NCBI GenBank assembly: GCA_016929035.1
Contig: JAFGJP010000022.1
Span: 1-29,122 of the forward strand
Length of the DNA: 29,122 bases
Source of the DNA: Candidatus Auribacterota bacterium
GTDB lineage: Bacteria; Auribacterota; JAFGBW01; JAFGJP01
Direction of reading: 5' to 3'
Part shown: piece by piece, positions 6,762-25,110 of the stretch
How positions within the stretch are numbered: the first letter of the stretch is position 1
Layout of the letters: the number at the start of each line of letters is the position of its first letter
Notes under the pieces: model-generated
Told to the model about the DNA's origin: nothing
Seen by the model: only the letters and a program-made list of their open reading frames with translations
Databases searched by the model: none
Position numbers and translations under genes: made by a program

Positions 6762-7547
6762 ATGAATGAGGGTAGAATCAGAAAGAGCATAAAGGCATGT
6801 TTTTTTTTCGGTCTCCTGTGCCTTGTTCTGATTTTGAGCGGCTGTGCAAAGACAAAATTCGCCCTTCGGTCCCGGCCGAAGACCCCGGAAGAAATTCCAC
6901 CGCGCATCGCCATCGTTCTTGATGATGCAGGAAATACTTCAACTTGTCTTCTTGATGTTGAAAATATTTCTTTTCCCGTCACCATAGCTGTTCTTCCTTC
7001 AGTAGCCTACTCGCAGAAGTTCTGCTATGTGAACAATCCTTTTGTAAAGAAAATTGTCCATGTTCCCATGGAAGCGGAGAAGCTTTATCCCGGTCCTGAA
7101 ACAATTTATGCTTCTATGTCAGAAAAAGAGATTATGGAAGCCCTCGAGGTTATTTTTGGTCAGTTTCCAGACCTGAAAGGATTCAACAATCATATGGGAT
7201 CGGTTTTTATGAAGGATGAAAGGGCGTTAAGAACAGTGTTCCTTTTTGCCAAAAAAAGAAAACTATTTTTTCTTAACAGCCTGACCGTGAGTGATGACAC
7301 AGCAAGGCGTTTGGCTGAGAGTCTGGGGGTTCCTTATCTTGAGAGAGATATTTTTCTCGATAATAAGGCGGACAGAAGTTATATACAGGAAAAATTTATC
7401 GAGGGCCTAGCGGGAGCACGTGACAATACGTTTTGCATCATCCAGGGCCATGTTCGACCAGATACGGTTCGAGCGCTCAGAGATCTTGTCCCGAAGGCTC
7501 AAAAAGAGGGATTTAGATTTGTTTTTCTGGAAGATCTGTATCAGTAA
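6762..7547 (+). CDS. Divergent polysaccharide deacetylase family (YibQ-like) lipoprotein
   Basis: IAIVLDDAG, IVHVPME, GFNNHMGS, ERDIFLDN motifs; lipobox LSGC; position after ctpA is typical. Start ATG 6762 is uncertain. Confidence 0.85.
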   Translation: MNEGRIRKSIKACFFFGLLCLVLILSGCAKTKFALRSRPKTPEEIPPRIAIVLDDAGNTSTCLLDVENISFPVTIAVLPSVAYSQKFCYVNNPFVKKIVHVPMEAEKLYPGPETIYASMSEKEIMEALEVIFGQFPDLKGFNNHMGSVFMKDERALRTVFLFAKKRKLFFLNSLTVSDDTARRLAESLGVPYLERDIFLDNKADRSYIQEKFIEGLAGARDNTFCIIQGHVRPDTVRALRDLVPKAQKEGFRFVFLEDLYQ

Positions 7548-7577
7548 AAAATAAAAATTTAAAAGTGAAAAATAAAG

Positions 7578-7603
7578 AATAAGGAGCGCTGCGCGCAGAT
7601 AAT
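7578..7603 (+). repeat. 3'-end motif AATAAGGAGCGCTGCGCGCAGATAAT, copy 1 of 3
   Basis: Related copies at 25853-25879 (+) and 26935-26959 (-), each shortly downstream of a stop codon in sense orientation. Confidence 0.75.
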
Positions 7604-7661
7604 AATAAAAAGTAATCCCGTGACGTCCTTAGGCGGATGGAGTAAAGCATGAAAATTCCTT

Positions 7662-7724
7662 GTCCCTCTTGTTTCTTGCCTCTTGATTCTTTTATCCTGT
7701 ATCGTGTATCCTGTATCTTATATC
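7662..7724 (-). repeat. GATACAG-type heptamer array (9 units)
   Basis: Minus strand reads GATATAA GATACAG GATACAC GATACAG GATAAAA GAATCAA GAGGCAA GAAACAA GAGGGAC. Confidence 0.85.
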
Positions 7725-7823
7725 TGTTATTATTTCCTAATTGTTATTTTTAGCTTTTAATTTTTTTCTCCAGTTTGTTTGTCCGCTTAATTATAAGAGC
7801 AAGAAGAGAAAAAGGATTTTAAA

Positions 7824-8831
7824 ATGATCATTCTAGGCATCGAGACGTCATGCGATGAGACGTCCGCCTCTCTGGTCGGAGACGGGCACAGGATTCTTTC
7901 TCTTGTGACGTCAACGCAGATTGATTTTCACAGGATCTACGGCGGCGTTGTCCCGGAAATCGCGAGCCGCCTTCATGCAGAGACGATAAGAGAGGTCACT
8001 CGAAAAGCCCTTGAAGATGCCTCTGCTGATCTGGAAGAGATTGATGCTGTTGCGGCCACAAGCGGGCCCGGTCTTCTGGGTTCTCTTCTCGTGGGCGTGT
8101 CTTTTGCCAATGCTCTGGCTCTTTCCCTGAGGAAGCCCTGCATGGCCATCAACCATCTCGAGGCTCATATCTATTCGGCTTTTATGGAGTTTTCTGAGAT
8201 TGAGCCTCCGGTTGTCGCTCTTCTTGTATCAGGAGGACATACGGCTATCGTGTTCATGGAAGATTTTGGCCGGTACCGGATGATGGGGAGCACTCTTGAC
8301 GATGCAGCAGGAGAGGCTTTTGATAAGATCGCTTTCTTTCTCGGCCTGGGCTATCCTGGAGGGCCTGCCATAGAGAAAGCGGCTTTGAAAGGAAACCGCA
8401 CAGCTTTTGAATTTCCAAGAGCCATGCTCAGGCATAAAAGATTATATGATTTCAGCTTCAGCGGGTTAAAAACATCTGTCATTAATAAGGTCAGGTCTCT
8501 TGCTGAATCTCCGGAGCTTCTGCCTGAAAAAGTCAAGCTCGACGTCGCAGCCAGTTTTCAGGAAGCTGTCTGCGACGCGCTTGTTGCCAAAACGATTGCT
8601 TCTGCGGAAGAAAGCGGTGTTAAAAGAGTCGTCCTCACAGGCGGTGTTGCAGCCAATTTACGCCTGAGGGAAAAGTTAGGAGAAGCGTGTGAAAAAAAAG
8701 AGATCCGTCTTTTTACTCCTTCCATGAAGCTGTGCGGTGATAATGCAGCCATGATCGCCGGCCTGGCCTTTTATAAGCGACACCAGGCCCTGGAATTCAT
8801 CGATGATGTAAGTTCTGTCAAGCCGATCTAA
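7824..8831 (+). CDS. tsaD: tRNA N6-adenosine threonylcarbamoyltransferase TsaD
   Basis: ILGIETSCDET, SGPGLLGSLLVG, NHLEAH, LLVSGGHT, TLDDAAGEAFDK, FSFSGLKT, GGVAAN, CGDNAAMIA. Confidence 0.97.
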   Translation: MIILGIETSCDETSASLVGDGHRILSLVTSTQIDFHRIYGGVVPEIASRLHAETIREVTRKALEDASADLEEIDAVAATSGPGLLGSLLVGVSFANALALSLRKPCMAINHLEAHIYSAFMEFSEIEPPVVALLVSGGHTAIVFMEDFGRYRMMGSTLDDAAGEAFDKIAFFLGLGYPGGPAIEKAALKGNRTAFEFPRAMLRHKRLYDFSFSGLKTSVINKVRSLAESPELLPEKVKLDVAASFQEAVCDALVAKTIASAEESGVKRVVLTGGVAANLRLREKLGEACEKKEIRLFTPSMKLCGDNAAMIAGLAFYKRHQALEFIDDVSSVKPI

Positions 8832-8855
8832 AATATTCTAAGCACCAAAAAATGC

Positions 8856-8900
8856 GATACAAGATTCACGATACAGGATGCAGGATAAAAGAAGCAAGAA
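8856..8900 (+). repeat. GATACAG-type heptamer array
   Basis: GATACAA GATTCAC GATACAG GATGCAG GATAAAA GAAGCAA GAA; inverted relative to 7683-7724. Confidence 0.85.
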
Positions 8901-8901
8901 G

Positions 8902-8933
8902 CCCTTCGACTCACTGCATTCGCTCAGGACAAG
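8902..8933 (+). repeat. REP-like CCCTTCGACT..CGCTCAGGAC motif
   Basis: Single copy in window; resembles an intergenic repeat type recalled from other bacteria, not verified. Confidence 0.35.
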
Positions 8934-8955
8934 CAAAGAAGTAAGATGCAGAAAA

Positions 8956-9054
8956 AATGAATCTCTCCGGGCTAAAGCCTGGAGTCTTTATAAAAGACCC
9001 CGCTTCGTAACATATCGCAAAAATCCACCGTGGAATTCGCGCATCGATTAAAGA
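8956..9054. mobile_element. Non-autonomous hairpin element, IS200/IS605-end-like, copy A
   Basis: Hairpin CTCCGGGC-TAAA-GCCTGGAG; 55/66 identity of 8974-9039 to 12279-12344; no transposase. Confidence 0.55.
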
Positions 9055-9123
9055 TACAGGAATAACCATAAAAATAAAGAAAATAGAAGAGAGAATAGAA
9101 AAAGACAATATACGATCAAGTGT

Positions 9124-9215
9124 ATCAGATCATAAGGATATCAGGTTTTATTTTTTTCTGATGCCCTGGTGCCCTGATATCCTGCCTCCTGGTTTCCTGA
9201 TAATCTGATTTCCTG
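9124..9215. repeat. NNNATCAG octamer array with local inverted copy
   Basis: 9158-9215 CTGATGCC CTGGTGCC CTGATATC CTGCCTC CTGGTTTC CTGATAAT CTGATTTC; GGATATCAGG (9136-9145) is the exact complement of CCTGATATCC (9173-9182). Confidence 0.8.
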
Positions 9216-9226
9216 TTTTTATTTAT

Positions 9227-9706
9227 CTATAACAGCGCATTGATCTTTTCGCGGATATCTTTGAAAACATCCACTCGTTCTATAGACGTCTGGTCTTTGT
9301 TAATAAGAAAGTTTGCGGGCACGCCGACTATCCTGTAAGAACTGGCCGTCTTTGCTTCCCTGTCGATCAGCGTTGTATACATGATTCCTTTGTCGCGAAC
9401 AAGGCTTTTGACCATGTTTTCTCCCTCGGTGATGTTTACGTAGAGCACCTGGAAAGGCTTGTCCTTATATTCTTCATGCAGCTTGTTAAGATAAGGGATT
9501 TCTTGCATGCAAAACGGGCACCGGCTGAATCCAAAAACGAGAAGAACGACCTTTCCTTTCAGCTGGCTGAGAGTCACGTCTTCACCGTTTACGCTTTTCA
9601 GGGTAAAGTCCTTGACGCTGATCGGCTGACCGGCCAAGGAGCAGGAGGACAAAGAAAGCAAAAGAAAAAAGAAGATGATGATTTTAAAACAAGAAAAATT
9701 TTTCAC
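9227..9706 (-). CDS. TlpA/ResA-like thioredoxin-fold disulfide reductase, probable lipoprotein
   Basis: DFTLKSVNGEDVTLSQLKGKVVLLVF, CPFC CxxC motif, VPANFLINK; lipobox-like LSSC; GTG 9706 after GGAGG. Confidence 0.9.
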   Translation of the reverse strand: MKNFSCFKIIIFFFLLLSLSSCSLAGQPISVKDFTLKSVNGEDVTLSQLKGKVVLLVFGFSRCPFCMQEIPYLNKLHEEYKDKPFQVLYVNITEGENMVKSLVRDKGIMYTTLIDREAKTASSYRIVGVPANFLINKDQTSIERVDVFKDIREKINALL

Positions 9707-9758
9707 AAAGCCTCCAAATGTCAAAATATTTTTTAAAGAATTAAAAAACAGAATTTCA

Positions 9759-24995: not shown

Positions 24996-25110
24996 CAGAA
25001 AAGAGAAAAAAGAGAATAGAAATTAGATACAAGATTCATGATGCAGGATAAAAAAGGGGATCAGATTATTAGGATATCAGGGATAAGGATACCAGGACAT
25101 CGGAAATCAG
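24996..25110 (+). repeat. Stacked arrays: AGAAAAG/AGAGAAT heptads, GATACAA heptads (25026-25053), NNNATCAG octamers (25057-25110)
   Basis: GATACAA GATTCAT GATGCAG GATAAAA matches 8856-8890 minus one unit; the octamers match the reverse complement of 9158-9215. Confidence 0.85.

Follow-up and report, generated by a model that had tools for sequence, protein, structure and literature searches.

In the stretch of DNA analysed here (the window), the gene tsaD is enclosed by two arrays of 7-nt repeats that are complementary to each other. The window is the whole of a 29-kb contig (C203; contigs of this genome are cited below by such numbers) of a Candidatus Auribacterota metagenome-assembled genome obtained from sediment, which comprises 1.97 Mb in 327 contigs and is 77% complete. 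We propose, with a probability of about 70%, that the bracket around tsaD is a by-product of two neighbouring spacer elements, each of them an ordinary member of a repeat family with the unit GATRCAN. The gene and its two arms are located as follows.

7667-7725, minus strand: left arm, a heptamer array that is pyrimidine-rich on the plus strand; the family copy lies at 7683-7724, and the arm lies 99 nt upstream of the tsaD start.

7824-8831, plus strand: tsaD (tRNA N6-adenosine threonylcarbamoyltransferase), an open reading frame (ORF) of 335 aa that matches Pfam family PF00814 (TsaD, E=1.9e-95).

8855-8904, plus strand: right arm, a purine-rich heptamer array that starts 24 nt after the tsaD stop.

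Tandem Repeats Finder detected a period of 7 at 7667-7725 and 8856-8887 and a period of 14 at 8855-8896. Read on the minus strand, the left arm consists of the units GATATAA, GATACAG, GATACAC, GATACAG, GATAAAA and GAATCAA and then continues onward; the units of the right arm are GATACAA, GATTCAC, GATACAG, GATGCAG, GATAAAA, GAAGCAA and GAAGCCC. The initial annotation of this DNA, which was made from the sequence alone, had described 7683-7724 and 8856-8897 as reverse complements at 36 of 42 positions with the unit variants in the same order. Direct reading and a 42-mer scan returned the same count, and the order is shared as described, GATAAAA being followed by GAAGCAA on one arm and by GAATCAA on the other. 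A repeat search extended the inverted match to 40 of 47 positions (85%; 7678-7724 and 8856-8902, 1131 nt apart). Measured against random sequence, the match between the arms is far beyond chance: in 100 dinucleotide-preserving shuffles of 7400-9200, the best 47-nt inverted match had a mean of 28.9 and a maximum of 34, compared with the 40 observed.

The two arms belong to a much larger population of repeats. Tandem Repeats Finder reported 368 period-7 tandem arrays in the genome, period 7 being by far the commonest, and 283 of the 404 merged arrays of period 7, 14 or 21 fall in the non-coding 13% of the DNA. The unit families include AAAAATC, GATACAN, AAGACNN, AAATTTC and AAAAGTT. The (GATRCAN)n family was catalogued by two rule sets, which yielded 108 and 110 copies, 97 of them intergenic. 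Copies contain 3-8 units, mostly 4-5, and often end in GATAAAA; 43 of the 110 have GATAAAA or GATAAGA among their units. The GATRCAN unit has no G-tract, and four to five units are preferred even though such a unit cannot form a G-quadruplex.

When the genome was scanned with the right-arm 42-mer, the matches formed a smooth ranking headed by two sequences at 36 of 42, the left arm and an unlinked copy (C306:6498-6539), and followed by 35, 34, 34, 34 and seven at 33. The left-arm 42-mer gave a like pattern, and the same unlinked copy matches the left arm at 35 of 42 positions. Over the 5995 pairs of catalogued GATRCAN copies, the best 35-nt window had a mean of 24.4 matches (standard deviation, 3.2). 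With 30/35, the tsaD pair stands at the 96th percentile; 4.1% of family pairs reach at least 30. The genome has 28 adjacent inverted pairs, 19 within the same spacer and 9 across genes, and at a rate of 4.1% about one value as high as that of the tsaD pair is therefore expected among them. In general, copies that are adjacent resemble each other no more than copies paired at random (same-spacer, 24.6; across-gene, 24.0; random, 24.4). In RNA duplex energy, the -44.3 kcal/mol observed for the tsaD pair would be matched with one arm by 4 of the 109 other copies and with the other arm by 6 of them.

These values bear on the possibility that a local inverted duplication or a gene conversion made the arms extra alike, with no function attached to the likeness. 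Such an origin would account for the fact that each arm is the best or joint-best 42-mer match of the other in the genome, and that both share the continuation from GATAAAA into a GAA unit, a minority feature found in 6 of the 43 copies with GATAAAA or GATAAGA. However, unlinked copies tie with the partner arm or come within one match of it, by the best 35-nt window each arm resembles several copies elsewhere more closely than its partner (33 and 32, against 30), and adjacent pairs in general show no surplus of similarity. The six carriers of the GATAAAA-GAA continuation, which had been taken as a sign of common descent of the arms, are the two tsaD arms and four unlinked copies. We consider a shared local origin unlikely. 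The annotated view of the arms as copies of one element holds in the sense that they represent one kind of element and not independent microsatellites; it does not hold in the sense of a private pair, the family having about 110 members.

The position of the family copies follows a rule. Polarity was defined by reading each array in the GATRCAN direction. In 53 of 68 cases it is the 5′ end that lies closer to a gene, and in 15 it is the 3′ end. For 55 copies, the 5′ neighbour is the end of a gene and the array is in the sense orientation, 24 of them beginning no more than 10 nt from the stop codon; for 30 copies, the 5′ neighbour is the start of a gene and the array is antisense, at a median distance of 67 nt. 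Spacers with both GATRCAN orientations number 17, against 3.0 expected in a length-weighted permutation (0 of 2000 permutations reached 17). In all 18 same-spacer GATRCAN pairs the purine-rich copy comes first, i.e., the copies are convergent, and their GATAAAA ends face each other over the spacer core. Taking all period-7 families together, the same-spacer order is purine-rich to pyrimidine-rich in 37 cases and the reverse in 3, and the clearly complementary same-spacer pairs are purine-first in 16 of 16, with loops of 12-216 nt. This order is identical when read from either strand, so that it belongs to the spacer and does not depend on which way the genes run.

Both tsaD arms obey the family rule. 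The gene sits between a left spacer (7548-7823) and a right spacer (8832-9226). The left arm is antisense and forms the right arm of the left spacer, its GATAAAA end pointing left into that spacer; the right arm is sense and forms the left arm of the right spacer, its GATAAAA end pointing right. Both GATAAAA ends are directed away from tsaD, and the order of the bracket, pyrimidine-rich then purine-rich, is the reverse of that in all the same-spacer family pairs. Among genes with period-7 arrays on both sides, this pyrimidine-gene-purine order is the commonest (10 genes versus 3 with the reverse). The preference of an array for a partner lies within spacers and not across genes: considering all heptamer families, the complementary share is 50% for same-spacer pairs, 3 of 14 (21%) for across-gene pairs and 11% for random pairs.

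The following model builds on what was observed directly, namely the family, the polarity rule, the within-spacer partner preference, the degree to which family copies are alike in general and, as described below, the unchanged place of tsaD in relatives. GATRCAN arrays line the edges of spacers with a fixed polarity, the 5′ end at the nearest gene and the GATAAAA end towards the spacer interior. Two copies in one spacer could then form an imperfect fold-back around the spacer core, and a gene located between two array-bearing spacers is automatically bracketed by an inverted repeat whose complementarity is that of the family. We infer that replication slippage generates the arrays and drives their turnover in fold-back elements, of a type that also encloses the gene for the 23S intervening-sequence protein (see below). 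They are probably transcribed as 3′-untranslated or intercistronic RNA, as in Xanthomonas, and a duplex spanning tsaD, if ever formed on read-through RNA, would be incidental.

Several points weigh against this explanation. For neither tsaD arm is there a same-family partner within the spacer to which it belongs, and same-family brackets around single genes are in weak, non-significant excess (3 versus 0.97 expected, P=0.07). Among gene-bracketing pairs, the tsaD arms show the closest match, whether the 9 same-family pairs or the 14 pairs of any family are considered; theirs is the best of the across-gene pairs, yet within what sampling gives. When both partners were offered, the long-range duplex reached -54.9 kcal/mol against -33.1 kcal/mol for the local alternative. 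No sigma-70-like promoter was found on the plus strand between the left arm and tsaD, although the consensus used may not be that of this lineage, and no terminator-like site was found on the plus strand upstream of tsaD. Because of these two results, it is plausible from the sequence that transcription reading through from the S41 peptidase and deacetylase genes upstream yields an RNA with both arms. The counts themselves rely on a crude longest-ORF caller as gene model, by which 87% of the DNA is coding, and on a fragmented assembly. As many as 104 of the 283 intergenic period-7 arrays border a contig end; the heptamer repeats are therefore probably responsible for much of the fragmentation of the assembly into 327 contigs, and the counts of paired arrays are lower bounds.

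Some of these points favor the idea, raised in the initial annotation, that the arms form a functional stem enclosing the cistron. According to this explanation, the arms pair over about 45 bp on the read-through peptidase-deacetylase transcript, and a cut by RNase III releases or stabilizes a separate tsaD mRNA. ViennaRNA did pair the arms in both the minimum free energy (MFE) structure and the centroid structure of 7650-8910, and the stem is also part of the MFE structure of 7420-9235, where local partners compete. The predicted energy of the long-range stem ranges from -44.3 to -54.9 kcal/mol. The only terminator-like hairpin is located past the right arm.

8965-8984, plus strand: terminator-like hairpin of 8 pairs (6 G-C) with a loop of 4 and a T-rich tail, 3′ of the right arm.

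Termination at this hairpin would give a tsaD mRNA that carries the right arm and stops near position 8990. In addition, RNase III is encoded in the genome (contig C80), the arms are the best matched of all gene-bracketing pairs, and both strands of the comparable Xanthomonas repeats have been found on transcripts (PMC4692102). Against a functional stem stand the similarity of the arms, which is within the family background, their polarity, which is opposite to that of every same-spacer family pair, the lack of a general excess of complementary arrays across genes, the array-free loci of relatives with the same gene order, and the roughly 100 other family copies that could compete in trans. 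The predicted fold was thus reproduced, but its reading as a functional, cistron-enclosing structure is unsupported and we judge it improbable. A look-up of RNA records for 7400-9400 returned none, the two metatranscriptome runs of the source study provided no usable cover of the tsaD locus, and a search of 7300-9500 against Rfam (E up to 1) returned only sub-threshold chance matches, to HgcC and CrcZ. Binding of a CsrA/CsrB-like (CAGGAUG) or HutP-like (triplet every 7 nt) regulator was dropped as a candidate, because position 7 of the unit can be any base and nothing in the data spoke for it.

A bolder version of the same idea extends it to the whole genome. In such an RNA pairing code, a pyrimidine-rich array ahead of a gene would pair with a same-family purine-rich array behind it on polycistronic precursors, RNase III would cut the duplex, and tsaD and a few other genes would be released as stem-closed monocistronic mRNAs, in the manner of rRNA excision. 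We hold this to be quite improbable, more so than a stem that acts at tsaD.

The comparison with related genomes separates the history of the gene from that of the arrays. tsaD was found in 31 of the 31 related genomes searched. The same-family relative G001 keeps the peptidase, the deacetylase and tsaD, and the order-level relatives G002 and G003 keep the peptidase followed by tsaD, in all three cases in the same orientation. No heptamer arrays were present in the tsaD spacers of G001, which were read directly, and no period-7 arrays flank tsaD in the loci of G001, G002 and G003. Since the arrays are absent at tsaD in these relatives, the expression of tsaD does not need them; and since the gene order is kept where the arrays are absent, it was in this lineage that the arrays came to surround a gene already in place. 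No relative close enough for covariation analysis was found, the nearest TsaD identity being 67% in the related genomes searched, no more than 52% in genome contigs and no more than 49% in metagenome contigs. The exact TsaD protein occurred only in the source sample's own contig, which is identical over 3507 nt. In the source DNA run, the sole contig spanning the whole stretch is identical to the window and has a single arrangement; the joints listed are skips and not strand changes.

The suggestion that the arms are the ends of an invertible or mobilised DNA cassette carrying tsaD, for which only the geometry of inverted repeats flanking a 1.1-kb segment speaks, can be set aside as very improbable. 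It is contradicted by relatives of the same family and order, which have no arrays there and in which tsaD keeps its place and orientation with respect to the S41 peptidase gene (a comparison that the initial annotation had itself recommended), by the arms themselves, which are only 85% alike and share no exact run longer than about 13 nt, by the absence of a recombinase among the flanking ORFs submitted to Pfam and by the single arrangement in the spanning contig. A miniature inverted-repeat transposable element was likewise ruled out: the core at 7588-7677 has no other copy in the genome, and same-spacer pairs enclose a different core at each locus.

The genes around tsaD and the remaining repeats of the window were also inspected. 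Upstream of tsaD are the S41 peptidase gene and then the deacetylase gene, whose stop is at 7547; downstream is a convergent AhpC/TlpA-like gene at 9227-9724 on the minus strand. The Pfam search of the submitted neighbouring ORFs identified a peptidase, a deacetylase, a thioredoxin-fold protein, a CcdA/DsbD-type protein and one ORF with no match. The additional repeats are listed below.

7545-7582, plus strand: A-rich heptamer array (TAAAAAA type; Tandem Repeats Finder), the purine-rich left arm of spacer 7548-7823; it overlaps the last bases of the deacetylase gene.

7730-7769, plus strand: T-rich sequence complementary to 7543-7582 (inverted match of 40 nt, 73% complementary), which forms the innermost right arm of spacer 7548-7823.

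9046-9104, plus strand: further purine-rich short-period arrays in the convergent spacer (repeat search and Tandem Repeats Finder).

9146-9215, plus strand (purine-rich on the minus strand): pyrimidine-rich period-8 arrays of the CCTGATAT type (with CTGATGCC and CCTGATAT at 9158-9215), just after the stop of the AhpC/TlpA-like gene.

25026-25053, plus strand: third GATRCAN copy in the window, 31 nt past a stop codon and in the sense orientation.

In the left spacer, 7543-7582 and 7730-7769 are paired in the local fold (duplex, -17.8 kcal/mol). In the right spacer, the period-8 arrays at 9146-9215 are a weaker local partner of the right arm, and the local fold pairs them with 8856-8890. Folded alone, neither spacer is more stable than shuffled sequence (z = 0.29 and -1.61). 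Runs of cctgata that resemble the period-8 arrays at 9158-9215 recur beside GATRCAN arrays in spacers of contigs C7, C77, C80 and C116. The right spacer is pieced together from distinct modules, each present in 4-9 copies. Two more dispersed modules were seen in it, one at 8902-8945 (4 other copies in the genome) and one at 8972-9045 (4-9 other copies); the latter begins inside the terminator-like hairpin. A further motif, AAGGAGCGC followed after 3-4 nt by GCGC (or the complement), is present at 7578-7597 of the window and in spacers on C2, C29, C231, C277 and C323. It consists of a Shine-Dalgarno-like word and a G-C hairpin of 4-5 bp and often directly adjoins heptamer arrays.

As a device specific to tsaD, the bracket is of little importance, since it is most likely a geometric accident. 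Its value lies in illustrating cleanly a class that is widespread and unexplained, that of polarised heptamer-repeat arms bordering intergenic spacers. For those who annotate array-rich genomes, long inverted repeats around single genes are to be expected by default.

Genes enclosed by complementary arms are known from the intervening sequences (IVS) of 23S rRNA genes, and the one in Coxiella is excised by RNase III (PMC4990558). The genome analysed here has a single gene of the corresponding protein family, PF05635 (23S rRNA intervening-sequence protein, bAvd-like; E=4e-37), at C294:287-727 on the plus strand. It is located within C294:228-762 and has AAGACTC/AAGACAC units on its upstream side and GTCTTGG/GTCTTGT units on its downstream side; the purine-rich arm comes first. 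PF05635 genes were found in 20 of 30 related genomes (G001-G030), often in several copies and with up to 18 matches in one genome. Of the 27 copies examined in relatives, 18 have an inverted match of at least 22/28 in their flanks; most of these flanks show a 7-nt periodicity, each with its own unit, and the purine-rich arm is first in 14 of the flanked copies and the pyrimidine-rich arm in 4. An IVS-type cassette and the tsaD bracket are alike in that a gene is enclosed by complementary arms. They differ in the cargo, which is TsaD and not a PF05635 protein, in the locus, which is outside rRNA, and in polarity, the C294 cassette being purine-rich first and the tsaD bracket pyrimidine-rich first with its loop-facing ends directed away from the gene. 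The GATRCAN arrays represent a widespread fold-back architecture in its local version, without a gene.

Hairpins of heptamer arrays that enclose no gene were also seen in the samples taken from related genomes (G013, G020 and G028 among them), with the units TTGGGAT/AAATCCC, GCCTCGA, GTCGTGA/ACTCACG, AATTCAG/TATTCTG and TGAGTGG/CTCACCC and loops of about 20-30 nt. Their distribution is patchy: some relatives have 50-80 period-7 arrays per 100 kb sampled, and others have nearly none.

Intergenic hairpins near stop codons are familiar from the repetitive extragenic palindromic sequences (REP) and bacterial interspersed mosaic elements (BIME) of enterobacteria, which are single imperfect palindromes tied to RAYT transposases and not tandem heptamers. 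Pairing between the 5′ and 3′ untranslated regions of a single mRNA is exemplified by icaR of S. aureus, where the long-range pairing of the mRNA ends draws RNase III; tsaD differs from this case in that there is no sign of selection for such pairing.

Closer parallels are found among heptamer repeats. These are the commonest class of long simple sequence repeats (SSRs) in many prokaryotes and have been attributed to polymerase slippage (Mrazek et al. 2007, as cited in PMC4679880). In Geobacter metallireducens, multicopy intergenic sites made of 4-5 tandem heptanucleotides, mostly paired, were drawn as fold-backs (Aklujkar et al. 2009, PMC2700814). Their units, GGACCGG and MTYCTGA, differ from GATRCAN; the sites were proposed to bind regulators, and their description there gives no polarity rule (PMC2700814). 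Direct repeats of the heptamer TAACTGA occur in Beggiatoaceae, Cyanobacteria and Bacteroidetes (MacGregor 2015, PMC4679880). Like the GATRCAN copies, they are abundant intergenic arrays with a strand bias relative to genes. In contrast to them, they lie immediately ahead of start codons in the forward orientation, and inverted pairs are very rare among them (169 direct sets and one indirect; PMC4679880).

The closest parallel is with the heptameric SSRs described by Rehm et al. (2015), GGGAATC in Xanthomonas and GGGGAYT in Nostoc (PMC4692102). The Xanthomonas repeats are nearer to the neighbouring ORF on their 5′ side whatever the orientation of that ORF, lying within 50 bp after stop codons when sense, or before ORFs when antisense. 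Each genome has 70-75 convergent plus/minus pairs that are potential stem-loops. The repeats are mostly transcribed, and no function is known for them; their preference for four units was taken as a sign of quadruplex formation (PMC4692102). The Xanthomonas and Nostoc SSRs and the GATRCAN arrays have in common that they are degenerate 7-nt arrays of few units with an intergenic excess, an ORF-proximal 5′ end and frequent convergent pairs. They differ in lineage, in the G-rich unit able to form a G-quadruplex, and in that transcription has been demonstrated for Xanthomonas. The GATRCAN family is therefore of the type described by Rehm et al. with respect to its tandem 7-nt units, non-coding excess, 5′-ORF placement and convergent pairs, and departs from it in the G-rich unit. 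Since GATRCAN has no G-tracts, the G-quadruplex explanation cannot apply to it, and the placement rule that the families share needs another explanation. This suggests that quadruplex formation does not account for the rule, which fits better with fold-back formation, slippage or a transcription-linked strand asymmetry as candidates. The G-rich unit belongs to the Xanthomonas/Nostoc subfamily and not to the placement rule. The Xanthomonas GGGAATC repeats are the best-fitting published description of the arrays that flank tsaD (PMC4692102); the class is known, and the unit is new.

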